A stretch of DNA of 64,000 bases from the IMG/VR virus record IMGVR_UViG_3300030095_004072; one strand, 5' to 3'. Of this stretch, positions 9,859 through 60,506 are shown in pieces. Within the stretch, counting starts at the first letter, position 1. Each line of letters starts with the position of its first letter. Below the pieces are notes generated by a model. The model had not been told where the DNA came from. It ran no database searches and was given only the letters and a program-made list of their open reading frames with translations. The stretch is from an uncultured virus (IMG/VR IMGVR_UViG_3300030095_004072). Lineage: Duplodnaviria > Heunggongvirae > Uroviricota > Caudoviricetes > Crassvirales. Position numbers and translations under genes: made by a program.

Positions 9859-10083
9859 ATGGATATTAGAAAAATTTCTGTTGGCTCAGACTATAAGTCT
9901 GGTTCAATGCATTACATTATAAATCAACCTGTTCTGGGTGGTGAATATAAAATACACTTAATACAAGCTAATGAAAAAACCCAATCATATAAGTTGTGGG
10001 TTGAAAAAAATAAAGAAATATTTATATGGAAAGAATTTCTTTACACCTTACCAATAACATTAGAATATAATATAAACTTTTAA
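9859..10083 (+). CDS. Hypothetical phage protein
   Basis: ORF with A-rich leader, coupled to the next gene (TAATG). Confidence 0.7.
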   Translation: MDIRKISVGSDYKSGSMHYIINQPVLGGEYKIHLIQANEKTQSYKLWVEKNKEIFIWKEFLYTLPITLEYNINF

Positions 10084-10655
10084 TGAGAGCTTTATATTCG
10101 TTTATAGTAAAGCCTTACAATAACCGAAGATACGATAATATAAAATCTATCGGTGGATTAGAATTTGTAACAAGTGTTTCTGAAGAAGATCACACTGTGT
10201 CTAATCGTTATGCAGAAGTAATATCCTTGCCTTTGCATTATAAAGGAGAGATAAAAATTGGAGACACTCTATTAGTACATCATAATGTTTTTAAATTTTA
10301 TAATGATATGTATGGAAATACTAAAAGTGGTAAAAGCTTTTTTAAAGAAAATATGTTTTTTGTAGAAGAAGATCAATTCTTTTTATACAAACATAATGGT
10401 AAATGGAAAGCACATGGAAAGTATTGTTTTGTAAAACCAGTAAATAAAAAAGAAACTTTTTTAGATAAACATACTAAATACGAACCATTGATTGGGATTA
10501 TTAAATACATAAACGAACAGCTATTGCAATTGGGTGTAAAGGAAGGTGACGAAGTAATTTTTGAACCCGAAAGCGAATATGAGTTTACAGTTGAAGATGA
10601 AATATTATACCGAATGTTTACTAATAATATAACAGTAATATTAAATGACAAATAA
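10083..10655 (+). CDS. Tandem GroES-like (co-chaperonin fold) protein
   Basis: Two GroES-like halves: FIVKP..GGL..AEVISLP..IKIGDTLL and FVKP..GIIKY..GVKEGDEVIF..EFTVEDEILYRM. Confidence 0.6.
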   Translation: MRALYSFIVKPYNNRRYDNIKSIGGLEFVTSVSEEDHTVSNRYAEVISLPLHYKGEIKIGDTLLVHHNVFKFYNDMYGNTKSGKSFFKENMFFVEEDQFFLYKHNGKWKAHGKYCFVKPVNKKETFLDKHTKYEPLIGIIKYINEQLLQLGVKEGDEVIFEPESEYEFTVEDEILYRMFTNNITVILNDK

Positions 10656-10923
10656 AGAATTAAAATTACAAATTATTGAAGCAGGAGAAAAAGCTGTTAA
10701 ACAATTAGTAAAAGTAGCCAAAGAAGATATTATTAAATATGATGCGGAAGATGAGTTAGCTGCTGATAGATTAAAAAATGCTGCAGCTACAAAAAAATTA
10801 TGCATTATGGATGCTTTTGAGATACTAAAAAAAATAGAAGAAGAAAAAGACTTATTAGATGGTAACATAGTTGATAGTAAAAACAATACATTAAAAGGAT
10901 TTGCAGAGTCAAGATCAAAATAG
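10645..10923 (+). CDS. Probable terminase small subunit
   Basis: Small helical protein directly upstream of and overlapping the large terminase gene. Confidence 0.5.
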   Translation: MTNKELKLQIIEAGEKAVKQLVKVAKEDIIKYDAEDELAADRLKNAAATKKLCIMDAFEILKKIEEEKDLLDGNIVDSKNNTLKGFAESRSK

Positions 10924-13147
10924 AATATATAAAGTTTTAAAAAACTATATACCAAATAGTGTGATGGCTAATAAAAATAAAGCTAAAACATGGAAATACG
11001 GTTACAATGAAAAATATAAATTAGTAATTATATCAAGAGACGGTACTTTAGGAGATATTTATGAGATTAGCAATGTAATTATTGGATTACCAAAAACGCC
11101 TAAAGTTTTTGATAATCAAAAAGAAAAAAAAGAAAATCAAGTTTGGACACCTACAATTCAACCAAAAGTATTAAAAAGAATACAGTCTATATTTCAATGG
11201 AATGAAATGCCAGTTGCTTTTAAAAATTCTTGGGTAGATTATATAGAAAAAGAATTTGATAAAAGAGAAGAAGGACATTGGTTTTTAAACAACGGTATAC
11301 CTACTTACATAACAGGTACACATTATATGTATTTGCAATGGACTAAAATAGATGTTGGACATCCTGATTTTAGAGAAGCTAACAGAGTATTTTATATTTT
11401 TTGGGAAGCTTGTAAAGCTGATAATCGTAGTTTTGGTATGTGTTATTTAAAAATAAGACGTTCAGGCTTTTCATTTATGAGTTCTTCGGAAGGTGTTAAT
11501 CAAGCAACCATTACAAGAGATGCACGTGTAGGTATTTTATCTAAAACTGGTGCTGATGCTAAAAAAATGTTTACAGATAAAGTAGTTCCTATTTCAAATA
11601 ATTATCCTTTCTTTTTTAAACCTATACAAGATGGTATGGATAAACCAAAAACTGAATTAGCTTATCGTGTTCCTGCGTCTAAAATTACTAAAAAAAATAT
11701 GTATGTAACTGATAATGAAGATTTAGAAGGGTTAGATACAACTATAGATTGGAAGAATACATCAGACAACTCATATGATGGAGAAAAACTTCAATACTTG
11801 TTACATGATGAAAGTGGTAAGTGGGAAAGGCCTGAAAATATATTAAATAATTGGCGAGTTACTAAAACTTGTTTAAGGCTTGGTAGTAAAATAATAGGTA
11901 AGTGTATGATGGGTTCAACCTCTAATGCATTAGATAAAGGAGGTGCTAATTTTAAAAAATTATTTGAAGATTCTGATGCATCTAAAAGAAATCAAAATGG
12001 ACAAACTAAATCAGGTTTATATAATTTGTTTATACCAATGGAATGGAATTTTGAAGGATATATAGATAAATATGGTATGCCAGTATTGTTTACGCCTAAA
12101 AAAACTGTAGTAGGAATGGATGGTGAAGATATAAATACAGGAGCAATAAACTATTGGAAAAATGAAGTAGACTCATTATCTTCTGATCCTGATGCACTTA
12201 ATGAGTTTTACCGTCAGTTTCCAAGAACAGAATCTCATGCCTTTAGAGATGAATCAAAACAATCTTTGTTTAATTTAACAAAAATTTACCAACAAATAGA
12301 TTTTAATGATAGTTTAATTTTAGGACAGCATATTACAAAAGGTTCATTTCAATGGGAGAATGGAGTTAAAGATAGTAAGGTAATATTTAGCCCAAATAAA
12401 AGTGGTAGATTTTTAGTATCTTGGACACCAGCAAAACATTTACAAAATAAAGTTTTTTTGAAACACGGAATAAAATATCCTGCTAACGAACATATAGGTT
12501 CGTTTGGTTGTGATAGTTATGATATTTCAGGAGTTGTTGTAGGAAAAGGTTCTAACGGAGCTTTGCATGGAATGACTAAATTTAATATGGACGATGCTCC
12601 TTCAAATGAATTTTTTTTAGAATATATTGCACGACCACAAACAGCAGAGATATTTTTTGAAGAAGTGTTGATGGCTTGTGTGTTTTATGGTATGCCAATA
12701 TTATGTGAAAATAATAAACCAAGATTATTGTATCATTTTAAAAACAGAGGATATAGAGGATTTTGTATGAATAGACCAGACAAAAGATATAATAAATTGT
12801 CAAAAACAGAAAGAGAATTAGGTGGTATTCCTAATTCATCAGAAGATGTAAAGCAATCTCATGCGGCTGCGATAGAATCACATATTGAAAAACATATAGG
12901 TTTAGATTTAGACGGTACATTTAGAGATGTTGATATTATGGGAACTATGCCTTTTCAACGTACATTAGAAGATTGGGCAAAGTTTGATATAACAAACAGA
13001 ACAAGGTTTGATGCTGCAATAAGTTCAGGATTGGCTATAATGGCTAATCAAAAGCATCTGTACACACCTACTAAACAAAAATCAAAAATAAGTGTTAACT
13101 TTGCACGATATGATAATAAGAGTTCCATTAGTCAATTAATAAGATAA
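10901..13147 (+). CDS. terL: Terminase large subunit
   Basis: KIRRSGFS Walker-A-like, LLHDESGK Walker B, FGCDSYD nuclease motif; precedes the portal. Confidence 0.9.
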   Translation: MQSQDQNRIYKVLKNYIPNSVMANKNKAKTWKYGYNEKYKLVIISRDGTLGDIYEISNVIIGLPKTPKVFDNQKEKKENQVWTPTIQPKVLKRIQSIFQWNEMPVAFKNSWVDYIEKEFDKREEGHWFLNNGIPTYITGTHYMYLQWTKIDVGHPDFREANRVFYIFWEACKADNRSFGMCYLKIRRSGFSFMSSSEGVNQATITRDARVGILSKTGADAKKMFTDKVVPISNNYPFFFKPIQDGMDKPKTELAYRVPASKITKKNMYVTDNEDLEGLDTTIDWKNTSDNSYDGEKLQYLLHDESGKWERPENILNNWRVTKTCLRLGSKIIGKCMMGSTSNALDKGGANFKKLFEDSDASKRNQNGQTKSGLYNLFIPMEWNFEGYIDKYGMPVLFTPKKTVVGMDGEDINTGAINYWKNEVDSLSSDPDALNEFYRQFPRTESHAFRDESKQSLFNLTKIYQQIDFNDSLILGQHITKGSFQWENGVKDSKVIFSPNKSGRFLVSWTPAKHLQNKVFLKHGIKYPANEHIGSFGCDSYDISGVVVGKGSNGALHGMTKFNMDDAPSNEFFLEYIARPQTAEIFFEEVLMACVFYGMPILCENNKPRLLYHFKNRGYRGFCMNRPDKRYNKLSKTERELGGIPNSSEDVKQSHAAAIESHIEKHIGLDLDGTFRDVDIMGTMPFQRTLEDWAKFDITNRTRFDAAISSGLAIMANQKHLYTPTKQKSKISVNFARYDNKSSISQLIR
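13096..13103 (+). promoter_or_regulatory. -7 box TAACTTTG upstream of portal
   Basis: Matches TAnnTTTG; lies in the 3' end of terL. Confidence 0.5.
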
Positions 13148-15586
13148 ATGAAAGGAATAAGTATAGATATAAAATCCGCTGCTTTTCCCGATCAGTTTGT
13201 TTCTGATTCTCAAAAGAAAACTAAAGAATTTGGATTACAAGTAGGTCAAGCTATTCAGTATGAATGGTTCAGGAAAGAAGGGGTAAACCAATGTAGGTTT
13301 TACAGTCAATGGTGGGAGTTTAATCGTTTAAGATTATATGCTCGTGGAGAACAATCCATAGCTAAATATAAAAATGAATTAGCTGTAGACGGTGATTTAT
13401 CTTATTTAAATTTAGACTGGACACCTGTTCCTGTTATTCCTAAGTTTGTTGATATTGTAGTAAATGGAATGTCGGACAGATTATTTACTGTTAAGGCATA
13501 CGCTCAAGATGCTATGTCATCAGAAAAAAGAGGTGAGTTTCAAAACATGGTAGAAAAAAGTGTTATTTCTAAAAACTTATTTCAACAAATAGAAAAAGAT
13601 TTTGATGTAAAATTGTTTAGCATGAATCCTGATGAATTACCTGAAAGTGATTTAGAAATGGAGCTTTATATGCAAATGAATTATAAACCTGCAATTGAAA
13701 TAGCAAATGAAGTTGCTATTAATACATTATTAGAAGAAAATCATTATTCACACACTCGTAAAAGATGTGATATGGACTTAATGACTTTAGGTTTATCTGT
13801 AGTAAAACATAACTTTCAATTAGGAGATGGAATAAGAGTTGAGTATGTTGATCCTGCTAATGTTGTTTATAGCTATACTGAAGATCCTTACTTTAAAGAT
13901 TGTTTTTATTGGGGAGAAATTAAAACAGTGCCTATTGGTGAGTTGTTAAAAATAAAACCTGATTTAACTAATGAAGACTTAGAAGAAATATCAAAATACA
14001 GTCAAGCATGGTATCAGTATTATAATGTTGCTGCTATGTATGAAAACTCTATGTTTTATAGAGATACAGTTACATTAATGTATTTTAATTACAAAAGCAC
14101 AAATACTTTTGTATATAAAAAGAAACAAACTGCCACAGGAAATTTTAAAGTAGTTCCTAAAACTGACGAATTTAATCCACCACAAGAAATGATGGATGAA
14201 GGTAAATTTGAAAAAGTAACAAAAAAAATAGATGTATGGTATGATGGTGTAATGGTAATGGGTACTAATATATTATTAAAGTGGGAACTTGCTAAAAATA
14301 TGGTTAGGCCACAGTCAGCAAGTCAATACGCTATGCCTAATTATGTAGCTACAGCACCAAGAATGTATAAAGGTAATATAGAATCCTTAGTAAGAAGAAT
14401 GATACCTTTTACTGATTTAATACAGATGACTCATTTAAAATTACAACAAGTAATTTCAAGAGTTGTACCTGATGGTGTATTTATAGATGCAGATGGATTA
14501 AACGAAGTTGATTTAGGAACAGGAAATGCATACAACCCTGAAGATGCTTTAAGATTATATTTTCAAACGGGTAGTGTTATTGGTAGAAGCTTTACTCAAG
14601 ATGGTGAGTTTAACAATGCAAAAGTACCTATTACACAACTTACTTCCTCAAGTGGTTCACAAAAAATGCAAATGTTAATTGGTAACTACAATCATTATAT
14701 GAATATGATTAGACAAGTAACGGGATTAAATGAAGCACGTGATGGAAGCACGCCTGATCCTAACTCTTTAGTGGGTGTTCAAAAATTAGCCGCACTTAAC
14801 TCTAATACTGCAACAAGACATATTTTAGAGGGTAGCTTGTATTTAACACAAACTTTAGCTGAAGCATTATCTATAAGAACAGCTGACGTTTTAGAGTATT
14901 CAGACTTTGCAGATGAATTTACTCAACAAATTGGAAAATATAATGTAGGGTTATTAGATGATATAAAAAACTTATATATATATGACTTTGGTATTTTTAT
15001 TGAAGTTTCTCCTGATGAAGAACAGCAAGCATTATTAGAGGCAAATATACAAACTGCTTTAAATAAACAAGATATTAATTTAGAAGACGCTATAGATATA
15101 AGAGAGTTAAAAAATATAAAAATGGCTAATCAGTTGTTAAAAGTTAAAAGAAAACAAAAGCAACTACAAGATTCACAACAAAAAGAAAAAGAACAACAGA
15201 TGCAAGCTCAGATTAATATGCAGTCACAACAAGCGGCTGCTCAAATAGCTATGCAAAAAATTCAAATGGAGACACAATCTAAAATGCAAATAAAACAAGC
15301 AGAGGTTGGTTTTGAAATAGAAAAACTTAAAAATGAGGCTGCGTTAAAAGAGTCTTTAATGCAAACAGAATTCCAAATGAATATGCAGTTAAAAGGTTTA
15401 GAGCAATCACAAATAGATATGCGTGAGCAGAATAGAGAAAAATCTAAAAACCAAAGAATTAGTCAGCAGTCATCAGAACAATCAAGATTAATAGACCAGC
15501 GTAAAAACAATTTACCTCCTATAAATTTTGAGTCTAATGAAGATAGTTTAGATGGTTTTGACTTAGCTGAGTTTGACCCACGATAG
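13148..15586 (+). CDS. Portal protein
   Basis: 812 aa between terL and scaffold; LNLDWTPVPVIPKFVDIVVNG motif; Gln-rich C-terminal coiled coil. Confidence 0.85.
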   Translation: MKGISIDIKSAAFPDQFVSDSQKKTKEFGLQVGQAIQYEWFRKEGVNQCRFYSQWWEFNRLRLYARGEQSIAKYKNELAVDGDLSYLNLDWTPVPVIPKFVDIVVNGMSDRLFTVKAYAQDAMSSEKRGEFQNMVEKSVISKNLFQQIEKDFDVKLFSMNPDELPESDLEMELYMQMNYKPAIEIANEVAINTLLEENHYSHTRKRCDMDLMTLGLSVVKHNFQLGDGIRVEYVDPANVVYSYTEDPYFKDCFYWGEIKTVPIGELLKIKPDLTNEDLEEISKYSQAWYQYYNVAAMYENSMFYRDTVTLMYFNYKSTNTFVYKKKQTATGNFKVVPKTDEFNPPQEMMDEGKFEKVTKKIDVWYDGVMVMGTNILLKWELAKNMVRPQSASQYAMPNYVATAPRMYKGNIESLVRRMIPFTDLIQMTHLKLQQVISRVVPDGVFIDADGLNEVDLGTGNAYNPEDALRLYFQTGSVIGRSFTQDGEFNNAKVPITQLTSSSGSQKMQMLIGNYNHYMNMIRQVTGLNEARDGSTPDPNSLVGVQKLAALNSNTATRHILEGSLYLTQTLAEALSIRTADVLEYSDFADEFTQQIGKYNVGLLDDIKNLYIYDFGIFIEVSPDEEQQALLEANIQTALNKQDINLEDAIDIRELKNIKMANQLLKVKRKQKQLQDSQQKEKEQQMQAQINMQSQQAAAQIAMQKIQMETQSKMQIKQAEVGFEIEKLKNEAALKESLMQTEFQMNMQLKGLEQSQIDMREQNREKSKNQRISQQSSEQSRLIDQRKNNLPPINFESNEDSLDGFDLAEFDPR

Positions 15587-15639: not shown

Positions 15640-16779
15640 ATGGATAATATTAAAGTAAAAGCTGTAGAGTTTATTGAAGACAATAAATCTCAAGCAGAAA
15701 TAGAAGAGAAACTTCTAAAAGAACACGCAGAGCAAGAAGATACTGCGGAAAATGTAGTAGAACAAACAGAAACACAACCTGAAGTAGAAGAAAAAGAAGA
15801 AGTAAAAGAAGAAGTTCAGGTTCAAGAAGAAACTCCCTCGTCAGAGTTAAATGACGAAGACGTTCTTAAATATATTAAAAATAGATATGATAGAGATATC
15901 AATTCTGTTGACGATTTATTTGCACAACAACAAGCAAATGAAGAGTTACCAGAAGATGTTTCTAAATATTTAAAATATAAGAAAGAAACAGGCCGTGGTA
16001 TTGAAGACTTTTACAAGTTACAAAAAGACTACACTACTATGGAAGATGATCAAGTTTTAGCTGATTACTATGCTAATATTGAAGATGGTTTAGATACTTT
16101 TGATATACAAGATTTATTAGAAGATAAATTTAGTTTTGATGAAGAATTAGATGAACCAAGAGATATTAAAAAAAGAAAATTAGCTAAGAAAAGAGAACTT
16201 GCGAAAGCAAAAAAGTATTTCAATGATCAAAAAGATAAATATAAAGTTCCTCTTGAGTCAAGTGGGGATGGATTATCTGACAAAGACAGAGAAACATTAG
16301 ATGCTTATAAAAGTTACATTGATGAATCTAAAACTGTGCAAGAAGCTCAGAAAAAAAAGTATGATTGGTTTCTTCAAAAAACCGATGAGGTTTTTAGCAA
16401 TGAATTCAAAGGTTTTGAATTTAATGTAGGAGATAAAAATTTTACTTATAAACCTGGTGATGCATCTGAAATTAAAAATGTTCAAAAAGATGTTGCAAAT
16501 TTTGTCAACAAATATATGGACGATAAAGGTTTAATTAAAGACGCAAAGGGATACCATAAAGCATTATCAATTGCTATGAATCCCGAAAAGTACGCTAAGT
16601 TTTTTTATGAGCAAGGAATGGCTGATGCTGTAGACAATGTTTCTAAAAAATCAAAAAACATTAATATGGACGTTAGACAGGCTTCTCAGAGTGTATCTAA
16701 AGATGGTTTAAAAATAAGAGCTATTGGAGATACAAGCAGTGGTAGAGGACTCAAAATTAAAAGTATAAAACGAGTATAA
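15640..16779 (+). CDS. Capsid scaffolding protein
   Basis: Very acidic N-terminus, helical, between portal and major capsid gene. Confidence 0.7.
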   Translation: MDNIKVKAVEFIEDNKSQAEIEEKLLKEHAEQEDTAENVVEQTETQPEVEEKEEVKEEVQVQEETPSSELNDEDVLKYIKNRYDRDINSVDDLFAQQQANEELPEDVSKYLKYKKETGRGIEDFYKLQKDYTTMEDDQVLADYYANIEDGLDTFDIQDLLEDKFSFDEELDEPRDIKKRKLAKKRELAKAKKYFNDQKDKYKVPLESSGDGLSDKDRETLDAYKSYIDESKTVQEAQKKKYDWFLQKTDEVFSNEFKGFEFNVGDKNFTYKPGDASEIKNVQKDVANFVNKYMDDKGLIKDAKGYHKALSIAMNPEKYAKFFYEQGMADAVDNVSKKSKNINMDVRQASQSVSKDGLKIRAIGDTSSGRGLKIKSIKRV

Positions 16780-16799: not shown

Positions 16800-18239
16800 A
16801 TGTCAGTACAATTAAACCCAGGATTTGCTTTACAGCCATCAGCTCAAAAGCAAGTTCTATCAACAAACTACATAACTAATTTTGATTTCTTGAATCAGTA
16901 TCTACCAGATACTTATGAAAAGGAATTTGAGCGTTATGGAAATAGAACAGTAGCTTCATTCTTAAGAATGGTAGGTGCTGAAATGCCAACTAATTCAGAT
17001 ATGATTAAGTGGGCAGAACAAGGAAGATTACATACTAAATATGTAAACTGTTCTTCAGCTCAAGCAGCAGCTTCAAATACAGCAACAATTACTATTGCTG
17101 ATTTAAATGTACCAGGATTAGTTGCTAACCAAACAAGTATTGGACTAAGAGTAGGTCAGACAGTTATGATTTCTGATAATACGCCTGGTTCTACATTATC
17201 TAACAAAGGTGTTATCTCAACTGCTCCAACTCCAGCTGCTAATACATTTGTAGTAGAGTATTACGAAGCGGGTGGACAAGCTTTTGCTGCAGGTGTAACG
17301 GTATCTGTATTTGTTTATGGTTCTGAATTTGCAAAAGGAACAACAGGAATGGAAGGTTCTTTAGAAGCGGATGATATATTCTTTTCTAATAAGCCTATTA
17401 TCATGAAAGACACTTACCAAGTTTCTGGTTCTGATATGGCACAAATCGGTTGGGTAGAAATCCAAACTGAAAATGGTGCTAACGGATACCTATGGTACTT
17501 AAAGTCTGAGCATGAAACAAGATTACGTTTTGAAGACTACATGGAAACTGCAATGATTGAGGCTGTACCTGCGGGAACAGGTTCTGGTGCAGAAACTTAT
17601 TTAAGTTCAGCTACAGGGGGTGCATTCCCACACGCTGGTTCTGAAGGTGTATTCTTTGCAGTAAACAGTAGAGGAAATGTTTGGGGTGGAGGAAACCCAA
17701 CTACTCTTGCAGGTTTTGATTCTATGATTCAAAGACTTGACAAGCAAGGTGCTATTGAAGAAAATGTAATTTTCTGTAACAGAAACTTCTCATTTGATAT
17801 TGATGATATGTTAGCTGCACAAAACTCTTACGGAGCGGGTGGTACTTCATATGGTCTATTTGACAATGATAAGGATATGGCGTTAAACTTAGGTTTCACA
17901 GGATTTAGAAGAGGTTATGACTTCTATAAGTCTGACTGGAAATACCTAAATGACCCTACAATGAGAGGTGGTTTAATTGGTGGTGGTGTGAATGGACTTT
18001 TAGTTCCTGCAGGATCAACATCAGTTTATGACCAAATCTTAGGTAAAAACGCTAAAAGACCATTCTTACACGTGAGATACAGAGCGTCTGAGACTGAGAA
18101 TAGACGTTACAAGACTTGGATTACAGGTTCTGCGGGAGGTGCTGCTACATCTGATTTAGATGCTATGACAGTTAACTTCTTAACAGAAAGAGCTGTTTGT
18201 ACTTTAGGTGCGAACAACTTCTTCCTATTCAATGCTTAA
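16800..18239 (+). CDS. Major capsid protein
   Basis: 479 aa after scaffold; QYLPDTYEKEFERYGNR and WAEQGRLH motifs; followed by a strong terminator. Confidence 0.85.
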   Translation: MSVQLNPGFALQPSAQKQVLSTNYITNFDFLNQYLPDTYEKEFERYGNRTVASFLRMVGAEMPTNSDMIKWAEQGRLHTKYVNCSSAQAAASNTATITIADLNVPGLVANQTSIGLRVGQTVMISDNTPGSTLSNKGVISTAPTPAANTFVVEYYEAGGQAFAAGVTVSVFVYGSEFAKGTTGMEGSLEADDIFFSNKPIIMKDTYQVSGSDMAQIGWVEIQTENGANGYLWYLKSEHETRLRFEDYMETAMIEAVPAGTGSGAETYLSSATGGAFPHAGSEGVFFAVNSRGNVWGGGNPTTLAGFDSMIQRLDKQGAIEENVIFCNRNFSFDIDDMLAAQNSYGAGGTSYGLFDNDKDMALNLGFTGFRRGYDFYKSDWKYLNDPTMRGGLIGGGVNGLLVPAGSTSVYDQILGKNAKRPFLHVRYRASETENRRYKTWITGSAGGAATSDLDAMTVNFLTERAVCTLGANNFFLFNA

Positions 18240-31425: not shown

Positions 31426-34400
31426 ATGAATAAAGAAGCTTTAGAAACTTTATATGGGTTAGCTCAACAAGATGGTTATAAAAAATCTTTAGAAGAGTTT
31501 ACTATTTTAATGCAACAAAATCCTGAAGCAGTAAATCAGATGTATGGCCTTGCGAGAAAAAATGGATATCAAAAGTCTGAAGACGATTTTAATATATTAG
31601 TTGGATTTCAGCAACCTGTAAAAAAAAAAGAACCGACTCAAGAAAGCCCAGAAGTGGTTTCAGATGGTTCTGGGGACACGGAAATTACGGAGGAAGTTAT
31701 CACGGAACAAGAGGGAGTTGGTACTTCGGATTATTTACAAAGTCAGGATCTTGATTTTGAAATGGCTGAGGTTAAGCCCTACAGCCCTGTTTATGCCGAT
31801 GCTCAAATGCAAGATTTATCAGTTGGTGAGAAAGACACTGCAATTGAAAGAGTATTTGGTAAAAATGAATTTACAGATTTCTTTGGTGATATGTGGCGTG
31901 CAGGTGTTCAAGGACAAGTGCAAGGAGGCACTGTTGATGAGTCATTAGAAATATTAGGTAAATCCCGTATTGGAGCTGAAGTAACCTCAGAAGACATACA
32001 AGACTTTTTAGTAGCACAAAGAAAATTACAAAGCGTAGGTGTTTCAGATGAGATGAAAGACTTTAATCGTATATACCAAGCTAACGGTGGTGGTGCTTGG
32101 GGTTGGGTAAAAGGAGTTTGGAATAACCCATCAACTATCCCGCAATTATTTGTTTCTTCCATGAGTGCTATGGTAAACCCTACTGTATTAGCAGGTGCGG
32201 CTGCAGGTGCAGGAGCGGGTACAGCTGTAGGTCCAATAGGTACAGCTGCAGGTTTTTTTGCAGGTGCGGGAATAACATTAGAAACAGGATTAACTTTTGC
32301 TGAGTTACTACAAAAAGAAGTTGTTGACAGAGGTTTAAAGTTAGATGAAGCAGGGGTACGAAAAGTCTTAGAAGATAAAGACGCAATGAGTAGTATAAGA
32401 AACAAATCAGCAGGAAGAGGGCTTGTTATTGGTGCTATTGACGGTATGGCTTCTAAGATAGGTATAAAAGTAGGAGCAAGAACATTAGGTGGAAAAGCAT
32501 ATGGTTTAGGTAAGAAAGTAAAAGCGACTGGTCAAGTAGCGGCAATAGAGGCAGCAGGAGGTTCTCTTGGTGAAATAGGAGGGCGATTAGCAGCTGATCA
32601 AGAAATGGACGCAGCTGAAGTTTTATTTGAAGGGTTTGCAGGAACAGCAACTTTACCTGCTACACTTGGAATAGCAGCATATAAATCACCTAAATACTAT
32701 ATAAATAAAGGAAATTTTGATGAAAGTCAAAAAGATTTAACAAGAGTTGATCCTGAAATAATGGAAGATTTAATTTATAACTCTACAGACGAAGAATTTG
32801 CCGCAGCTGAAATAACTATAAAAAATAACCCTGAATTAGAAAAGGTAGCAGCTGACAGAAAGAAAAAACTTCATAGCAAATCCACAGCACAAAAAGAAAT
32901 TTTAGATGCAAACCCAAAGTTAAGCCAAGAAAAATTAGATAAATTAGTTCCGTTACAAGAAGAATTAAATAGTTTAGAAGGAAATAAATCACAACCTGCA
33001 AAGAAAAGAAGGGCTGAGATTATAGAACAAATGAATGCTGTTGAAGAAGCAAAAGAAACTAAAGTTGAAGAAACAGAAATAACTGAAGAAGAAATAGATA
33101 AAAAGTTAAAAGAATTAAAACCCAATACTGATACAGCTACTGCAGAAGAAAGAGCTTATGCAAGAAATTTAGTAGCAAAAGATAAAAGAGATGCTGCTGC
33201 AAAAGTAGCTGAAACAGAAACAGAAACAGAAACAGAAATTACAGCTACTCCTGAAACTAAAGAGGAAGCACAAGACTTAGCTGAAGCTGTAGCATTAGAT
33301 ACAGAAGAGACAGTAACAAATGAACAAGGAGAAGTAGTAGGAGAAAAAGTAGATGAAGGTGAGGCAATGATTAGATACGGTGAAGAGTCAGAGCAAGATT
33401 TGTTTGCACCATTAGATTTTGAAAACACTAACAACACCACTTTTGGTCCTGCACCTGCAAACTTAGCCTTTTTTGGTCCTGCTAATAGAGCGGGAACGTA
33501 TAAGGCTGATGGTACTCGTAATAAATTTACTGCAACAATTACACCAAAGAATCCGTATAAAGTAGAAAAATCTGATGTATGGACAGTAGAAAAACTCCAA
33601 CCTATTATAGAAGCAGGACATGATGCTATTGTGGTTACAAATCCTGTAGCACCTGAAACTATTGTATTAGATAAAAGTATTATTAAATTAACAGCACCAA
33701 CTGAATTAAAAACTAAAACCGATGCCACTACAAAGCAAAGCACAACTAAGGTGGATGGCAAAAAACAAGCCAAGCCTATTTCAAAAGTTTCTAAACGAAA
33801 CACTAAACGTAAAAAATCTACCAGAAAGAAAGTCAAAGACAAAGCGGAGCAACAAAAGCAAGACACGCAAAAGAAAACGAAAATAAAAGAACTTAAAGCT
33901 ATAGCTCCTAATGCTTATGTAAACGAGTCAGACAAAGCAAAAAGAATTAACTCAGAAAAATTTATAAAACCTGCTAAAAGAGCTTTAGCTGCATTAAAAA
34001 AATTACTTCCTGATGTGATGGTTGTAATACATGAGAATGAGGTAGACTATATGAATGCTATTGGTAATCCAAAAGGCAGGTCTGCAGGTGTTTTTAGAGG
34101 TGATAATGTAATTCATATTAATGCTGAACTTGCAACTAATCGTGTCTTAAGTCATGAAATATTTCACGCTATACTTAGAAACAAATTAGGGTCAGAAAGT
34201 AAAATAGCAGTTTTAACAGACAGAATGATGAAGGCTCTTGCAAAGGCTGATTTAGATCCTGAAATAAAAAAGAAAATTGACGAATATATTGCGTTATATA
34301 AAGAAAGAAATAAAGATGATGCGTCAAGATTAGCATATGCAAATGAAGAATATATGGCTGAAATCTTTAGTTATCTGTCAAATAACTATACATCTTTAAA

Positions 34401-37400
34401 AGCACCTCAACAATCTATTATAAAAAGGTTTATAAGCAAACTAAGTAATTTATTAGGACTTACAGCAGAAGATGTTATTGGAACTGATAAGGCTTTGATT
34501 GATTTATTAAACGTAGTAGCAGGTAAGGTACAAACAGGTGAAACAATTACTAAGTCAGATGTAAAACAACTTGACTTGTTTGCAGGTGGTAAAGAGGTGA
34601 AAAACCCATCAACTGCTTTAAAAACAATGGTTGTAGGTGGTTTTGAAGTAAGTTACACTCAGCAAGATAGTATTGCGGAAATGATTAAAAAAGGTTTAGT
34701 TACTGAGCCTAAAGATGTAAGTTTCTTAGAAGGTAACGAAACTGTTATAACAGCTCCAGACGATATGTTAGCAGGAGAGATTAAATATAATGGTAAAGTT
34801 ATTTTTGAAGGGGAGGGTGGTGTGTTTTTTGTAACTAAGTTTGGTGATGTATGGGCTTCAGGTAATAAAGGTACTGCAAATAATATAGCTAAAAATTTAA
34901 ATAAACAATTAGAAACTAATGGAGGTAAAGCATACTTAACATTAACAAAAGGATCAGACGCTAAATTAGTTAGTAGTGCTTCTGGTGTAAATTCTACTTT
35001 AGCAATATTAAACACGATGTTAGATAATAAATTAATTACCCCTTCTAATTTTAGAAGTGCTGTTTCTGCAGCTGTAAAAAAAGCAGGAGGAACAATTAAT
35101 TTAAGACAAAGTGCAAAAGATTTAAAAACAGATATACAAAAATATTTTACTAATCCAAAAACTTCAACGTTTGAGAAAAGAGGAGATGTGGTTAGAGATA
35201 TAGTAGGAGAAATAGCTAAAAATCTTCCTAAAGAAGATAGAAGTGCTATTATTAATTTTTTAGATGGTAATCCCAACAAATCTTTAGCAAAGAAAACTTC
35301 AGCAACTGCTAACGGGTTAGTTGATTTGATTGCTCGTATAGCAGCTGAACAGCTTACGAAAGGTTTAAATACAGGAGATGTTTATGCAATTATAGAAATT
35401 AACAGTCCTGTTGAGGTTAAAGAAGATTCGCACCCAAGCTATCCATTTCACATATCAATAAAAGATGGTGGTAAACCTATATTACACTTACCACAAAACA
35501 GACAATCAGGAAGTGAGGTGTTAATACAAAAATCAGGGGTAGAATACAAGGTTCGTAATGTATCTATAGTAGAAGGAAGCTATAAATCCTCAGACAAGAC
35601 ATCAGTGTATACAGGAGAAACACAAGAAAAAAGAATATTTAACAAACAAGACACTATAAATGATGTGGTTGCTAAAGCAAGAGGATTAGACTATAGTGAA
35701 GCAGCTATATTTGAATACTTACGCAACAACAGAAAACTATCTACAGATGAAGCTCGTGCTGCATTAGAACAAAAAGAAGGAGCTTTTACTGATATACCAA
35801 TGGAGTTTCAATTAGTAAACGGTGGTATAAGTGAGGGTCAAACTTTATTTAATCAAATATCATATGAGTTAAATAAATTTTTAGTAGAAAAACCTGATGC
35901 TACTCGTATACAAACTGAAAAGAAAGCTTTTGAAATATTAAGAAACAATGACATATTTAAAGCACAAGATAAAAGTATACAAAACAACATTGAAATATCT
36001 TATAGAGGAGTATTAGGTAAAGTACAAAGTGTAGAAATAAGTAAACGTATAAATCGTTTAAAAAGAGACTTGTTTATAAAAAAACAAGGACAAAGAGATT
36101 TAAGAAAAATACAACTTCAGTTAAAGCAATTAATTAGAAAGTACGTGCCAAAAGAAGCTACGTTTACTAAGGCAGAATTAGATAGAATGCTAAACAAAAT
36201 TATAACAGCAGGACCTGATTCTATTTTGTCTGTAGGTGAAAAAATATTTAATGCAGTTGAAAGAAAAAGAAAACAAGTTAAGATAAAAAAGATTAAAGAG
36301 ATAAAGGCTATGGTTAACAAATTAGCCAAGTCTGCTTCTACTAAATCATCAAGACCAATAGCGTCTAATATAGAAGGTGGAGGTGTTGCATTTTTTAAAG
36401 AAGTAAGATCAGTATTACAAGCTGCCTTGACACCAGACAATGTTTCCAGAGGAGAAAAGTTATTATCAATTTCTGCATTAATTGAGTCTAATCAACAAGA
36501 AACTCAAATAACATTAGAAAAACAAAAAAGAGGTGAGCCTCTTACTTTAAGAGAACAAACTTTGTTAGCTCGTGTTTTAGCTTTTGATACATTTAATAAT
36601 ATATATAACTTAGACTTAGAGGCCGTTACTGATATATTAGAGCAAATGAAAGATGCTAAAAAAGAATCTATTGCTATGTTAAATATGGCAAGATTAGAAC
36701 GAGCTGAAGTTAATAATGAAATTTTTGAATCAGCAACTAATCAAATAAGACAAAACTATCCTGAAATGTTTAATGATGATGGTAAGGGAGAGTTAAAAAA
36801 TAAAAGAGACTTTGATGCTTTAGATAAAGAAGGTTTTTTAGGAGACACAAGAAGTAAAATCAGTAACTTTTTTAAACAATTTAAATTTACATCTACAGTA
36901 GGTATACGTTCTTATTTAAGAAATAGACTTTCTCATTTAGGTACTTTAATGAATATTTTAGATAATGTAAATTTAAAAAATACATTTTTCTACGATACTG
37001 TTTATCAAGGATTAAATAGAATGCATACTAAAGCCTTGAGAGGATATTATAATGCACAGACAATGATTAATTCTATTGCAGCAAGTATTGATGGTATAGA
37101 AAGTTATCAAGACTTAAAACAAAAATTACCATTTGAGCTTGTAAAAATAGACTTTGGAGATACAAAATATATTAATAAAGCCACAGGGAAAGCACAAGAA
37201 GAGTTTAGTATTACACAGTTAATGAGAATATATGCTTTGAGTAAAAACGAAACTCAAAGAATAAAATTAGAAAACTCAGGGTTTGGTCAATATCAAATAT
37301 CACAAATAGAGGGAGCAATAGGGACAGATGCTGTAGAGTTTGTAGATAAAATTGTAAACTGGTTAAGCACAGATTACTTTAATAGCATAAACAATATATA

Positions 37401-39069
37401 TAAACAAGCTAACTATACTGATTTAGGTTTTGTAGAAAACTATTTTCCTACAAAAAGTATATCAGCTTCAAATGTAAGTCAAGACTTAATAAAGGGTGGT
37501 AATTTTGCAAAAGTATTTAGTGCTGAGACTGCTCCGTCATTAAAAGAAAGAACAGACGAGTTTGGAGAGACAGACGTAGGTCCTGATTTTGTAGAAACTT
37601 TAGAAAACCATGTTGCACAAATGGAAAGATATAAAGCTTACGCTTTAGGAGTAAAAAATTTACAAGCAGTCTTTAATGTTCCTGCTGTTAATACTTTACT
37701 AACACGTTTAGGTATTTCTGATAGAGTAAACGAATCAGTAAATTTAGCTATAAACCCATCTATGGGAGTGAAGGATCAAGGTGTTATGGCGAAACTGCAA
37801 CGTAAATTTACAGGATTTGCTTTATCATTTAAAGCAATTCAATTATTAAAACAATCAACATCTTTTGTCAATGCCTTTGAAGAATATAAAGGTAAGGGTG
37901 GTGCAGGTGGTTTTATGATTGGTATGGCTAAAGTTGTTGCAAGACTACCTTACTACATGAAGTTAGCACAAGAAATATCTCCAGACTTTAGAGATCGTTT
38001 GCGTAAAGGATTAGAAGGAGACTTATACAGATTAGAAACAGGAAGTAGGACTACAGCTCCAATTGAAAGAAGAATTAAAGACTTAAGAAAAGCTTTAAGT
38101 GAAAAGGATTATGAAGCTTTTAAAAATAGAATTATTACACTGTTTCAGAAAGGTGCAGCTATGCCTACGGTAATGGGAGATATTATGGGTGTTATGGGAT
38201 ATATGGTAAATTACGAAGCTAATATTGCAAATGGAATGTCAAAAGCAAAAGCAGCTGAAGCTTTTAATAATTATAATGCAACTCAGCAGTCAAGAAGAGA
38301 AACAGATAAAATTCCTTTACAGCAAAGTCAAAATGAAATGACAAGAGCTTTTACTATGTTTGGTAGTACATTGTTTTTACAAATAAATAAAGTTATGAGT
38401 TCTACAAGTAATATTATGGGAGCTATATTTCGTAAAAAAGCTCCAAGAAGACAAGATATAAGAGCTTTTGTTTTAAACTTTGCAGGTGCTAACGTAATGT
38501 TTGCTTTAGCAGCAAATATGTTTAAATTCATGGGTAATGATAAAGACGAAGAAGAAGCTATGGATAGATTAAAAGAAGCTATGTATGGTTTAAACTTACT
38601 TTATCAAATACCTTTTTTTGGTGCAGCAGTACAAGAAACAAGAAACAGGGCTTTAGGAAAGTCTTCAGGATATGCTGATGATGTTGTAAATCCTATAAAA
38701 TCTGTTATGAGAAAAGTAAATAAAGGATTGAAAGATGGAAGATTAGATAAAAGTCTAAGGCCATTTGTAGAAATTTTATTAGGAGCACAGGTTGACCCTT
38801 TTGTAGGAATGTATAATTATTTTGCAGGACAAGGCAAAGACAAAAACGAAGCATTTTATGATATATTTGGTATAAGCCCATCTTACCGTCCAGGGACAGG
38901 TACTGCCTACAGTCCTGAAGATTTAAAGTATATAAAACAAACTAATCCTGATTTGTATAACCAAATACAAGAAAATAAAAAATTAAAAAATAGTAATAAG
39001 AAAATGAGTAAGTCAGAAATGAAACGTACTAACCCTGAAATGTATTATCAAATTTATGGAGAACAATAA
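31426..39069 (+). CDS. Giant internal virion/polyvalent protein (2547 aa) with zincin HExxH and ART-like segment
   Basis: Gly/Ala hydrophobic stretches; SHEIFHA...NEEYMAE; KNPY...GHDAIV...ETIVLD; helical C-terminus. Confidence 0.7.
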   Translation: MNKEALETLYGLAQQDGYKKSLEEFTILMQQNPEAVNQMYGLARKNGYQKSEDDFNILVGFQQPVKKKEPTQESPEVVSDGSGDTEITEEVITEQEGVGTSDYLQSQDLDFEMAEVKPYSPVYADAQMQDLSVGEKDTAIERVFGKNEFTDFFGDMWRAGVQGQVQGGTVDESLEILGKSRIGAEVTSEDIQDFLVAQRKLQSVGVSDEMKDFNRIYQANGGGAWGWVKGVWNNPSTIPQLFVSSMSAMVNPTVLAGAAAGAGAGTAVGPIGTAAGFFAGAGITLETGLTFAELLQKEVVDRGLKLDEAGVRKVLEDKDAMSSIRNKSAGRGLVIGAIDGMASKIGIKVGARTLGGKAYGLGKKVKATGQVAAIEAAGGSLGEIGGRLAADQEMDAAEVLFEGFAGTATLPATLGIAAYKSPKYYINKGNFDESQKDLTRVDPEIMEDLIYNSTDEEFAAAEITIKNNPELEKVAADRKKKLHSKSTAQKEILDANPKLSQEKLDKLVPLQEELNSLEGNKSQPAKKRRAEIIEQMNAVEEAKETKVEETEITEEEIDKKLKELKPNTDTATAEERAYARNLVAKDKRDAAAKVAETETETETEITATPETKEEAQDLAEAVALDTEETVTNEQGEVVGEKVDEGEAMIRYGEESEQDLFAPLDFENTNNTTFGPAPANLAFFGPANRAGTYKADGTRNKFTATITPKNPYKVEKSDVWTVEKLQPIIEAGHDAIVVTNPVAPETIVLDKSIIKLTAPTELKTKTDATTKQSTTKVDGKKQAKPISKVSKRNTKRKKSTRKKVKDKAEQQKQDTQKKTKIKELKAIAPNAYVNESDKAKRINSEKFIKPAKRALAALKKLLPDVMVVIHENEVDYMNAIGNPKGRSAGVFRGDNVIHINAELATNRVLSHEIFHAILRNKLGSESKIAVLTDRMMKALAKADLDPEIKKKIDEYIALYKERNKDDASRLAYANEEYMAEIFSYLSNNYTSLKAPQQSIIKRFISKLSNLLGLTAEDVIGTDKALIDLLNVVAGKVQTGETITKSDVKQLDLFAGGKEVKNPSTALKTMVVGGFEVSYTQQDSIAEMIKKGLVTEPKDVSFLEGNETVITAPDDMLAGEIKYNGKVIFEGEGGVFFVTKFGDVWASGNKGTANNIAKNLNKQLETNGGKAYLTLTKGSDAKLVSSASGVNSTLAILNTMLDNKLITPSNFRSAVSAAVKKAGGTINLRQSAKDLKTDIQKYFTNPKTSTFEKRGDVVRDIVGEIAKNLPKEDRSAIINFLDGNPNKSLAKKTSATANGLVDLIARIAAEQLTKGLNTGDVYAIIEINSPVEVKEDSHPSYPFHISIKDGGKPILHLPQNRQSGSEVLIQKSGVEYKVRNVSIVEGSYKSSDKTSVYTGETQEKRIFNKQDTINDVVAKARGLDYSEAAIFEYLRNNRKLSTDEARAALEQKEGAFTDIPMEFQLVNGGISEGQTLFNQISYELNKFLVEKPDATRIQTEKKAFEILRNNDIFKAQDKSIQNNIEISYRGVLGKVQSVEISKRINRLKRDLFIKKQGQRDLRKIQLQLKQLIRKYVPKEATFTKAELDRMLNKIITAGPDSILSVGEKIFNAVERKRKQVKIKKIKEIKAMVNKLAKSASTKSSRPIASNIEGGGVAFFKEVRSVLQAALTPDNVSRGEKLLSISALIESNQQETQITLEKQKRGEPLTLREQTLLARVLAFDTFNNIYNLDLEAVTDILEQMKDAKKESIAMLNMARLERAEVNNEIFESATNQIRQNYPEMFNDDGKGELKNKRDFDALDKEGFLGDTRSKISNFFKQFKFTSTVGIRSYLRNRLSHLGTLMNILDNVNLKNTFFYDTVYQGLNRMHTKALRGYYNAQTMINSIAASIDGIESYQDLKQKLPFELVKIDFGDTKYINKATGKAQEEFSITQLMRIYALSKNETQRIKLENSGFGQYQISQIEGAIGTDAVEFVDKIVNWLSTDYFNSINNIYKQANYTDLGFVENYFPTKSISASNVSQDLIKGGNFAKVFSAETAPSLKERTDEFGETDVGPDFVETLENHVAQMERYKAYALGVKNLQAVFNVPAVNTLLTRLGISDRVNESVNLAINPSMGVKDQGVMAKLQRKFTGFALSFKAIQLLKQSTSFVNAFEEYKGKGGAGGFMIGMAKVVARLPYYMKLAQEISPDFRDRLRKGLEGDLYRLETGSRTTAPIERRIKDLRKALSEKDYEAFKNRIITLFQKGAAMPTVMGDIMGVMGYMVNYEANIANGMSKAKAAEAFNNYNATQQSRRETDKIPLQQSQNEMTRAFTMFGSTLFLQINKVMSSTSNIMGAIFRKKAPRRQDIRAFVLNFAGANVMFALAANMFKFMGNDKDEEEAMDRLKEAMYGLNLLYQIPFFGAAVQETRNRALGKSSGYADDVVNPIKSVMRKVNKGLKDGRLDKSLRPFVEILLGAQVDPFVGMYNYFAGQGKDKNEAFYDIFGISPSYRPGTGTAYSPEDLKYIKQTNPDLYNQIQENKKLKNSNKKMSKSEMKRTNPEMYYQIYGEQ
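31620..31754 (+). other. Candidate -1 frameshift site (A10) and 41-codon -1 frame extension
   Basis: GTA AAA AAA AAA GAA, then a -1 frame encoding a Gly/aromatic peptide to TGA 31752-31754; downstream CCCAGAA/TTCTGGG stem. Confidence 0.45.
33722..33886 (+). CDS. Overprinted 54-aa basic ORF (MPLQSKAQLRWMAKNKP...) in the +1 frame of the giant gene
   Basis: A-rich leader AATTAAAAACTAAAACCG then ATG; host frame has unusually many G/C-ending codons here. Confidence 0.55.
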   Translation: MPLQSKAQLRWMAKNKPSLFQKFLNETLNVKNLPERKSKTKRSNKSKTRKRKRK

Positions 39070-46897: not shown

Positions 46898-47307
46898 TTA
46901 ATTTAATTTAATTAGTTTATTTGTGTGATAAGTATATTTTTTCATTATTAAATCTCTCTTAGTTTTTAGATTTTTAATAAACTTATCGTTTTTACGTGTG
47001 TTTACTTCTGTCTTCATCTTATATTGTATAAGATCAACCTTACGTTTACAATTGCTTAAGGCTAACAATCTACAACCTTTTTCCCAACCGTGAGCATAAA
47101 ATATTTGATATTCTTCGTCTGTTAATTCTTGATAATAATCTCCGTTTTTTGAACAATTTAAAATTTCTAATTTACTTGGAAACTTATTGATCTTAACGCC
47201 TAAATTAATCATGCTAATTCCANNNNNNNNNNAATTCCACCGTTTTTATGATAGTATATTGTATCATCTTTTAGAGCTTGATTAAATATATCCTTCTTAC
47301 TGTACAT
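46898..47307 (-). CDS. Hypothetical protein; real start probably 47307 across the N gap
   Basis: Collapsing the AATTCCA duplicated on both sides of the Ns joins MYSKKDIF...NGGIS in frame to MINLGV... Confidence 0.6.
47223..47232. other. Assembly gap (10 N)
   Basis: N run flanked by a 7-bp duplication. Confidence 0.95.
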
Positions 47308-58628: not shown

Positions 58629-58940
58629 ATGTCTAAAAGTCTATACAAGAAAAAAACTCCTCCGATGGTTGGTGCTCCAGTAAATAAAACAAAGAAAAAA
58701 ACTGTAAAGAAAAATACAACTACAAAAAAAACTAAAACAAAAAACCCAAAGAATAAAAATATATTAGATACTAAAACTAAAAATATTCCAAAAGCTTTAG
58801 TTAAAAAAACAAAACAAAAAATTAAAAATGTTTTAAACAACACTCCTAAAGAAAATATAAAAAAGCTTATTACTGGAGATTCAAACCTTTATGTAAAAAT
58901 GTATAAAAACATGAAGAAAATGTATAAAAACAGAAAATAG
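58629..58940 (+). CDS. Very Lys-rich small protein
   Basis: Low-complexity K/T/N sequence behind a promoter box. Confidence 0.6.
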   Translation: MSKSLYKKKTPPMVGAPVNKTKKKTVKKNTTTKKTKTKNPKNKNILDTKTKNIPKALVKKTKQKIKNVLNNTPKENIKKLITGDSNLYVKMYKNMKKMYKNRK

Positions 58941-58943
58941 ATT

Positions 58944-59096
58944 GTGGCAAAAAAAATGAGAACAGGAAAAAAAGTATGTTGGAAATATGGAAGCGGAAAA
59001 TACTGTGGTACATTAATACCAAGTATGGAAACTGCAACTCATAGATATGCACGTACTGAAAACGGAAAGGTTAAGTCATTGCCTAAGAAAAAGTAA
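58944..59096 (+). CDS. Small basic protein (50 aa, MAKKMRTGKKVCWKYG...)
   Basis: Read manually; GTG start; TAATG coupling to next gene. Confidence 0.55.
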   Translation: MAKKMRTGKKVCWKYGSGKYCGTLIPSMETATHRYARTENGKVKSLPKKK

Positions 59097-59389
59097 TGGC
59101 TACAAGAGGCAGAACAAAAAAAGCACAGATAAGAAGAACAACAGGTAAAGGAGGTAATTATCGTTCTACTAAATCTGGTGCAGGAATGACTGCTAAAGGT
59201 GTAGCTGCATATAACAGAAAGACAGGAGGTAATTTAAAAACTGCTGTAACAGAAAAGAATGCTAAAGGAAAAAGAGCCGCACGTAGAAGATCTTTCTGTG
59301 CAAGAATGAGTGGAATGAAAGGACCATTAAAAGATAAAAAAGGAAGACCAACAAGAAAAGCTATGGCTTTAAGACGTTGGAGATGCTAA
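59096..59389 (+). CDS. Small Arg/Lys-rich phage protein (DUF6321-like)
   Basis: RRRSFCARMSG...ALRRWRC motif. Confidence 0.7.
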   Translation: MATRGRTKKAQIRRTTGKGGNYRSTKSGAGMTAKGVAAYNRKTGGNLKTAVTEKNAKGKRAARRRSFCARMSGMKGPLKDKKGRPTRKAMALRRWRC

Positions 59390-59401
59390 TAAATTAATTA
59401 T

Positions 59402-59409
59402 TATATTTG
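59402..59409 (+). promoter_or_regulatory. -7 box TATATTTG, 4 nt before ATG (probably leaderless)
   Basis: ATG at 59414. Confidence 0.6.
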
Positions 59410-59413
59410 CAAT

Positions 59414-59584
59414 ATGCCTACAGTAACACATAAATGTCCTGATACAGGAAAAACAATGAAAAGAACTTTTCCTTACAATGCTGTAGGGAAAGCACAAGCA
59501 GTAGAATTTGCTAAAACTATGAATGGTTCTATTAAGAACAATCCTGGTTATGGCATGGAGAAGAAAACTAACTCAGGTTATTAA
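59414..59584 (+). CDS. Small basic protein (56 aa, MPTVTHKCPDTGK...FPY..GKAQA)
   Basis: Read manually. Confidence 0.6.
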   Translation: MPTVTHKCPDTGKTMKRTFPYNAVGKAQAVEFAKTMNGSIKNNPGYGMEKKTNSGY

Positions 59585-59601
59585 TTTAAAAAAAAGAAAA
59601 A

Positions 59602-59796
59602 ATGAAACAAGGATATAACGACAGACTTGACGAATCTTTAGGAGCAAGAAACGGAAAGAAGTCTCAATCTATGAAAGATAGAAGAGATGAGTCAAAAGCA
59701 ATGTCAAAAAAAGATTACGGTCACTCTTATGGAGCTGACGAGTCAATGTCTTACAGACACACTTCTTCTTGGAAGACTCACGATCATCTTAAATAA
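59602..59796 (+). CDS. Small protein (MKQGYNDRLDESLG...)
   Basis: 64-aa ORF in the small-protein cluster. Confidence 0.65.
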   Translation: MKQGYNDRLDESLGARNGKKSQSMKDRRDESKAMSKKDYGHSYGADESMSYRHTSSWKTHDHLK

Positions 59797-59996
59797 TGGC
59801 TGGTCGTACAAAAAAACCATTTCCTGAAATAAAAAAAGGAAATGAAGGAAAGTTTACTGCATGGGTAAAAAGCAATATGCCTGGTAAAAGTACGTGTTCA
59901 GCAGCATCAGCTGTTATGAAAAACACAAACAAATACTCAGAGTCAGTTGTAAAAATGGCTAACTATGCAAAGAACTTTGGTTGTAGTAAAGCATAA
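59796..59996 (+). CDS. Small basic protein (GKFTAW...KMANYAKN)
   Basis: 66 aa, translationally coupled. Confidence 0.65.
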   Translation: MAGRTKKPFPEIKKGNEGKFTAWVKSNMPGKSTCSAASAVMKNTNKYSESVVKMANYAKNFGCSKA

Positions 59997-60017
59997 GTTT
60001 AATTTAATAAAATAAAA

Positions 60018-60224
60018 ATGGCGAAAAAAAGAAAAAACCTTGCGAAAAACAAACCTGCTACTCCTCCTAATATGACTTTTGAGGAAAAAGTAGAGTTAAA
60101 ATCAAAAGGTAAGCTAAAAGCAAAAACAATAGAAAAAAAAGAAATATTAACTCCTGACTCTCATGTACAGTATGTAAAGCCAAGAGTTAAAACACCTATT
60201 AACGATAGAATAAGAACAAGATAA
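60018..60224 (+). CDS. Small basic protein
   Basis: 68 aa, K/R/P-rich. Confidence 0.6.
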   Translation: MAKKRKNLAKNKPATPPNMTFEEKVELKSKGKLKAKTIEKKEILTPDSHVQYVKPRVKTPINDRIRTR

Positions 60225-60225
60225 A

Positions 60226-60345
60226 ATGAAAGAAAAACTAATATCTTTGTATTGTTATTTACAATGCAGTTGGAACAGCTTAATGGATTATTTAACTTTG
60301 GATGTAGAAAAATGTCCTAAAGAAAATTGTTCATGCAAAATGTAA
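60226..60345 (+). CDS. Small Cys-rich protein (39 aa)
   Basis: Read manually: YCYLQC...CPKENCSCK. Confidence 0.5.
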   Translation: MKEKLISLYCYLQCSWNSLMDYLTLDVEKCPKENCSCKM

Positions 60346-60506
60346 ATAATAAATCCAGAGGTTTTGGTGATTCTATAGCAAAATTAACTAAAGCGACAGG
60401 TTTAGATAAGGTTGCTCATAATATGGCCAAAGCAGTTGGTAAAGAAGACTGCGGTTGCGGTCAAAGAAGAGATACTTTAAATAGAGTATTTCCGTATAAT
60501 AAATAA
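60333..60506 (+). CDS. Small phage protein (GFGDSIAK.T.ATG...DCGC..R...LN..FPY), 57 aa
   Basis: Read manually; CGC-type motif I recognise from other phage proteins. Confidence 0.6.
   Translation: MQNVNNKSRGFGDSIAKLTKATGLDKVAHNMAKAVGKEDCGCGQRRDTLNRVFPYNK

Follow-up and report, generated by a model that had tools for sequence, protein, structure and literature searches.

A probable nested gene of a large, unnamed phage protein family in the +1 frame of a giant virion gene

Can a short open reading frame (ORF) that lies wholly within a far longer ORF of the same strand be a gene in its own right, and if so, which of the two frames was there first? The question is raised by a 64,000-nucleotide stretch of DNA from an uncultured virus (IMG/VR record IMGVR_UViG_3300030095_004072; the whole stretch is called the window here), in which a giant virion gene (31426..39069, plus strand, 2547 aa) encloses a small ORF at 33722..33886 on the plus strand. 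The original prediction had placed a dual-coding segment at 33700..33886; the end of that span stands, and its start takes in the leader, since coding begins with the ATG at 33722 and closes with the TAA at 33884-33886. The predicted 54-aa ORF is confirmed as 54 codons plus a stop in the +1 frame of the giant gene ((33722-31426) mod 3 = 1), and no alternative in-frame start lies between the preceding stop (the open segment begins at 33710) and the nested ATG. We put at roughly 0.8 the probability that 33722-33886 is a real protein-coding gene that overlaps the giant virion gene on common DNA, its frame shifted rightwards by one base relative to that of the host; that the nested gene is real and separately translated appears highly probable.

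The evidence that we regard as decisive is conservation and not length. Use of the giant protein as a query retrieved 12 loci from IMG/VR, nine of which hold a complete +1-frame ORF whose start shows the signature seen in the window; another two carry the start and then run off the end of the locus (11 of 12 in all), and the twelfth stops before the site. Both the nested ATG and the stop are retained in every relative of the giant gene that reaches the site, down to a host identity of 32-42%, and the ORF is still kept in a relative (L006) whose host linker is acidic where that of the window is Lys-rich. At 24 of 25 giant-class loci, the small frame resembles that of the window more closely than the host frame does (mean identity 0.47 versus 0.30). 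Among 34 substitutions that separate the window from two relatives (L002 and L003), only 7 alter both proteins against an expectation of 59% (P 5e-6), 15 leave the small protein unchanged (P 0.002) and 12 the host protein (P 0.03). Both frames are therefore constrained. Of 17 copies of the small gene that stand alone, 16 have stops in what would be the host frame, as compared to 0 of 69 nested copies; an open host frame is therefore no automatic consequence of the small gene but is maintained through the choice of codons. Purifying selection acts on both frames, and the proposal that this is a real dual-coding segment is supported by the conservation and the substitution pattern.

The nested product was originally said to resemble stand-alone phage proteins that begin with MPFKSKAQ, a likeness that profile searches bear out. 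A family profile built from eight nested peptides and run against 1.84 billion representatives recovered, at E<=1e-3, 1813 clusters formed at 50% identity, of which 75 reach <=1e-10, and nearly all of the 1813 align through their own residues 1 to ~45; a second search gave 2660 clusters (90% level, 24-123 aa) at E<=1e-5, and no functional name was attached to any of the 120 of these that were listed. A profile of 44 database proteins, from which all proteins of the retrieved loci had been excluded, matched the nested ORF from M1 to residue 53 at E 1.6e-17 (60 bits), the only match among 1513 six-frame segments of the window. The nested product carries the family signature, M-P-[FLI]-x-S-x-A-Q followed by an aromatic residue at position 11, P17, a second aromatic at 23, T27 and L33-P34 (L33 and P34 are invariant in the family alignment), and it has the family form as well, being short (members are ~40-90 aa) with a mostly basic, variable tail behind the module. 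Distant members share this signature at 38-48% amino-acid identity, and their DNA is very different. The nested product is thus a member of a family of small phage proteins that is very large, has no name and lies close to phrog_1375 (70 positions, listed under ‘unknown function’ in PHROGs v4), which is matched N-terminally by 15 of 15 scanned stand-alone relatives at E<=0.01 (best 1.9e-9). By the same alignments, a conserved module of 35 residues always lies at the extreme N-terminus. In longer members it precedes a ParB-like nuclease (P0035), a P-loop kinase-like domain, HExxH mini-domains (P0021 and P0022), DUF5661 (three times), DnaJ (borderline) or IF3_C.

The neighbours of the family in the ESM-Atlas are viral hypothetical proteins, and the nearest Pfam-labelled cluster bears DUF3008 on 37% of its members (score 0.80), a weak lead only; DUF3008 (PF11450) was not matched at E<=0.1 in a Pfam scan of 15 relatives. 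A tblastn search of 50,697 phage records with the nested peptide returned only E>=3, a profile search of the sequences in the PDB gave chance-level best values of E 0.29 and 1.2, and no paper containing the motif strings or the phrog_1375 number was found in the literature.

The product itself has 54 aa, a pI of 12 and 19 K+R. Its conserved N-terminal module, residues 1-36 (33722..33829, plus strand), is delimited by two alignments (A2 and A3) together with an AlphaFold2 model, and its conserved columns are M1, P2, S5, A7, Q8, W11, M12, P17, F23, E26, T27, L33, P34 and E35. Residues 37-54 (33830..33883, plus strand) form a basic tail with 12 K+R of 18 that is predicted to be disordered; it terminates in RKRKRK, which is retained within the clade of the window. 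AlphaFold2 predicts helices at 6-15 and 17-26 (pLDDT ~90) before the disordered tail, with a mean pLDDT of 82 and values of 88-94 across the first 30 residues. Foldseek found no match to this model in the PDB at E<=0.001, the predicted fold being a bare two-helix hairpin, and the product has neither a signal peptide nor Cys. Prediction of a complex between the portal (alignment A4, 812 aa) and the small protein (A3) scored 0.00, which counts neither way.

Where the gene is found in other phages is of particular interest. A peptide alignment led to 80 more viral loci, with at least 127 of 600 candidate stretches confirmed, and a census of 90 sources with 77 distinct ORF sequences (redundant contigs are included: L001 and L013 with the window, L003 with L014) placed the small ORF within giant ORFs in 31 sources and within an ORF of 250-450 codons in 30, with 9 truncated or otherwise arranged; the remaining 20, without any covering ORF, add to the stand-alone homologues seen among the clusters. 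Of the 70 nested copies, 69 are read in the +1 frame. The mid-size host gene sits between portal and capsid, in phages that share the terminase, portal and capsid PHROGs of the window. Residues 121-388 of its product are homologous to the product of window gene 15640-16779 (39%, E 9e-60), a 379-aa gene in the scaffold position, and its N-terminal 120 residues, which hold the nested gene, are not alignable to that product. Within this group of Flavobacteriia podophages, the small gene has two unrelated hosts, the giant gene and, in sister phages, the N-terminal linker of the scaffold-position gene, a point that goes beyond the original prediction. Two complete genomes have one copy each, one within the scaffold-position gene and one within the giant gene. 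At L020 the small gene stands alone just past the stop of the giant gene, whose product is homologous over its C-terminal 1100 residues to residues 1410-2519 of the window's giant protein. Other stand-alone copies directly follow the portal or a portal-position gene (L017, L023, L078, L035 and L070), directly precede such a gene (L024), lie near one (L068, L080 and gp9 of Mycobacterium phage Barnyard), or, in surroundings like those of T7, adjoin genes for terminase or internal virion proteins. Two GenBank records contain the nested ORF without annotating it, NC_055853.1 in gp18 (‘structural protein’) and MW202828.1 in its giant CDS; in an Elemovirus, whose giant gene is gp18, the ORF lies at L093:34456. 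The CDS of MW202828.1 (741-12320, L100), which is homologous to the giant gene, bears the GenBank name ‘reticulocyte binding/rhoptry protein’, evidently a spurious transfer through a low-complexity match.

The host frame changes character over the nested gene much as had been described. Host codons 766-820 (33721..33885, plus strand) encode a low-complexity, K-rich linker (18 K of 55 residues), and the G/C content of their third positions (GC3) reaches 0.36, where the gene as a whole averages 0.166 (sd 0.056), the ninth highest value among 2492 sliding windows; the maximum for the gene, 0.38, falls at the same place. This codon shift is a real signal. The linker itself is poorly conserved, being acidic in most relatives and basic in the window. 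An A-rich stretch (33697..33721, plus strand; 52% A, 16% T) precedes the nested ATG, and here the early description was correct; the stretch is not distinctive, and 52% A is also the mean of the 46 gene starts of the window. In a start-context model built from those 46 starts, the nested ATG ranks in the top 11% among 2069 ATGs and 17th of 147 within the giant gene.

Several observations weigh against the reading of a nested gene. Its translation is argued here from sequence. The start context is ordinary for a gene: scored on its upstream sequence, the nested ATG falls at the 41st percentile of real starts. Searched singly, the nested peptide has no match in PHROGs at E<=1, phrog_1375 included, none in Pfam (E<=1), NCBIfam or the PDB, and a single-sequence, word-indexed protein search yielded 1 candidate and no scored match; the product is a divergent member of its family, with F20 in place of A and F23 in place of W. 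In the close relative L002 (95%), the sole exception among the 25 giant-class loci, the host frame is as conserved as the small frame (0.93 versus 0.91). A search at E<=0.01 detected no copy in Cellulophaga phages phi38:1 and phi13:2, Tenacibaculum phage Gundel_1 or Maribacter phage Panino, and the gene is hence not universal in the wider group. Among the fusions, the complete IF3 C-terminal domain that follows the module in P0040 (128 aa, E 1.5e-40) comes from a single 591-base contig that may be chimeric; if real, it would be a curious phage variant of IF3.

Could the +1 frame be open merely because the host linker is rich in A and poor in T, with no translation at all? The overlap contains 12% T against 27% in the giant gene, which makes stops rare there, and the start context is unremarkable. 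Read in the +1 frame, the 2547 codons of the giant gene contain 277 stops, and the open stretches of 108, 58 (the nested ORF) and 43 codons place the length of the nested ORF, by itself, within chance expectation. We nevertheless consider a chance ORF very improbable, because the ATG, stop and signature persist at the low host identities given above under acidic and basic linkers alike, and because neither the strength of the profile match nor the excess of small-frame-silent changes would be expected of it. The gene also provides what is probably its own negative control: a 94-codon ATG ORF at 31664-31948 (plus strand), likewise in the +1 frame and longer than the nested ORF, appears to be a chance ORF and is not conserved, its open stretch dropping to 77, 39 and 41 codons in L003, L005 and L009. 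That the family profile is itself an artefact of linkers read in the wrong frame is excluded by the 20 stand-alone genes, mostly with stops in the other frames. Slighter still is the likelihood that a nucleic-acid element (an RNA structure, or a packaging or regulatory site) is what is conserved, with the open frame a by-product. The local anomaly in composition would suit such an element, as would the population variants, counted in contigs of four DNA runs (X4, X5, X7 and X10), which fall at 7 sites in the 801 bases of 33400-34200 and at none in the 165 dual-coding bases, a difference that is not significant (P ~0.2). Opposed to it are the distant members, alike in protein and not in DNA, and the making of the same protein from stand-alone genes of unrelated phages such as Barnyard. 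Conservation at the level of protein contradicts both of these accounts. An assembly frameshift or a compensating pair of indels was also considered and rejected, as the arrangement recurs in 31 giant-class sources. On the other strand, a 236-codon ORF with a GTG start (33156-33866, minus strand) covers the same region and is probably a by-product of the T poverty of the plus strand.

A less remote, though still improbable, alternative is that recoding joins the two frames. Ribosomes that start at the nested ATG could slip by -1 (or the polymerase could add an A), so that the product would be the module joined to the C-terminal part with its HExxH motif and the 54-aa protein would not be the sole or main product; or ribosomes in the host frame could slip by +1 into the small frame. 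The region is A-rich, and the small frame of the window contains two canonical heptamers, at codons 14 and 31. In addition, the host frame beyond the nested ORF holds the kind of domain to which database proteins fuse the module in frame: an HExxH region in the clade of the window, where HEIFH (34153..34167, plus strand) lies ~90 codons past the nested stop and marks the point at which the giant protein's conserved C-terminal part begins (a DUF5700 match of this region is weak and sub-threshold, E 0.0018), and ParB_N in L071:6174-7673 (E 2.3e-6). This parallel across frames is striking. The heptamers themselves argue otherwise: canonical -1 heptamers occur in 4 of 26 distinct giant-class ORFs and 2 of 24 mid-class ones, at scattered positions, they are commoner in stand-alone genes (8 of 19), and the two of the window are absent from L003 by reading of its sequence. 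A conserved heptamer at a fixed position, as would be expected of a programmed -1 frameshift, is thus not apparent in the nested gene. The conserved stop, the basic tail and the strictly N-terminal M1-P2 across the family favour a free-standing product, and a +1 slip from the host frame would have no need of a conserved ATG.

If the nested gene is real, as we think, its product would be translated from the nested ATG on the late structural mRNA, from an A-rich, Shine-Dalgarno-free start context such as this genome typically uses. The small gene probably predates the host frames overlying it, a point that was likewise absent from the original prediction. It is widespread and stands alone in unrelated phages, which argues for its age, and the host frames over it would be young linkers, disordered and absent from homologous host proteins without the nested gene. 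The disordered linkers of the host genes may have grown over the small gene, the reverse of classical overprinting.

What the product does is a more speculative matter, and any answer has to be drawn from gene neighbourhood and domain fusions only, which also counts against the proposals made here. The product would consist of a hairpin of two helices, a conserved LPE and a disordered tail of Lys and Arg, and it could act in head assembly or in the virion interior as a docking module with a DNA-binding tail. We offer such a role tentatively, as a possibility suggested by the constant place of the gene in the structural module, by its frequent proximity to the portal, by hosts that are probably head-internal proteins, and by fusions in which a short N-terminal module is followed by varied cargo. 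More doubtful, but perhaps worth stating, is the idea that the MPFKSKAQ module is an ancient and widespread ‘address tag’, an N-terminal hairpin that docks proteins to the portal, the scaffold or the capsid interior. A tagged protein would be packed into the head and exit with the DNA; the tag could work in cis, fused to a cargo such as a nuclease, kinase or peptidase, or in trans, as a small basic protein. The genes for scaffold-position and giant ejection-type proteins of Flavobacteriia podophages would then have engulfed the tag gene, and a single stretch of DNA would specify the tag protein in one frame and, in the other, a linker of the protein that is probably its partner. An order that recurs, tag (in the +1 frame) and then enzyme domain (in the host frame), might mark module borders of the giant protein. 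A head-docking tag, if true, would account for the loading of varied enzymes into the capsids of many marine phages.

The window covers the greater part of the genome of a podophage of the Flavobacteriia type. A scan of its ORFs places the large terminase at 10901-13147, the portal at 13148-15586, the gene in the scaffold position at 15640-16779 and a capsid-like virion protein at 16800-18239; further virion proteins follow, the giant gene (phrog_32588 over aa 130-609) is the last of the virion module, and replication genes lie after it on the opposite strand. A split of the giant ORF into two genes was considered and rejected, as the host frame is nowhere interrupted. The closest named relatives of the window are the Elemovirus phages of Flavobacterium, together with the metagenomic record MW202828.1, and its giant protein has a homologue in Flavobacterium phage elemoF annotated as a ‘structural protein’; a blastn search of phage records with the giant gene returned nothing, and no primary description of Elemovirus was found among the papers listed by a literature search. 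Like Elemovirus, the window encodes a phage GroEL (55011-56600, plus strand) and a GroES-like protein (10083-10655, plus strand). Ten N at 47222-47231, just upstream of a minus-strand gene ending at 47212, represent a masked or unresolved stretch. At 58629-60506 (plus strand) is a run of small, mostly basic ORFs, one of which (59096-59389) is DUF6321 (E 1e-21) and the rest of which lack a Pfam match. The nested product had been likened to these basic proteins at 58.6-60.5 kb, and the likeness holds for size and charge; kinship was rejected, as the family profile finds no relative among them and no second copy in the six-frame window. Several studies have marine metagenomes with near-identical phage DNA. 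In public runs, the stretch is contained wholly or partly in 20 of 24 listed rows, as contigs only and from 11 studies, the RNA rows being small or doubtful.

Annotation pipelines drop ORFs nested in longer genes, and both GenBank relatives that were checked omit this one. The family, with thousands of members, has neither a name nor a function, and the nested copies provide a natural test of selection on it. Among better known proteins, DUF3008 (PF11450) comprises small viral proteins as here, with no match between its Pfam model and the nested peptide, and for phrog_1375 no function is recorded in PHROGs and nesting is unmentioned. T4 internal proteins bear N-terminal capsid-targeting sequences, and portal-associated head proteins of the MuF/SPP1 gp7 type have variable C-terminal cargo. 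The family resembles both types in joining a short, conserved N-terminal module to varied C-terminal domains and in its genes lying in the head module, often beside the portal, and its conserved L33-P34-E35 recalls the LxE cleavage motif of the T4-type system; there is no sequence similarity to either. A T4-like targeting peptide cleaved by a prohead protease was considered and appears doubtful, since none of the 41 window ORFs matched a protease PHROG at E<=1e-5.

The nesting itself has familiar counterparts. Rz1, the lipoprotein spanin partner of Rz, is encoded inside Rz in phage lambda, and phiX174 has E within D and B within A, all on the same strand. As in these systems, the small gene described here is complete, is read in the +1 frame and lies wholly within a longer gene of the same strand. 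Neither frame is interrupted, and translation of the small product would begin at its own start. Unlike Rz1, the nested protein has no signal peptide or Cys and sits in the virion module. Also unlike Rz/Rz1, the same small gene is nested in two unrelated host genes and belongs to an old, widespread family that stands alone in most phages, which suggests that the host frame is the newcomer. The direction would then be opposite to that of textbook overprinting: an old, mobile small gene overgrown by the linkers of two larger ones.

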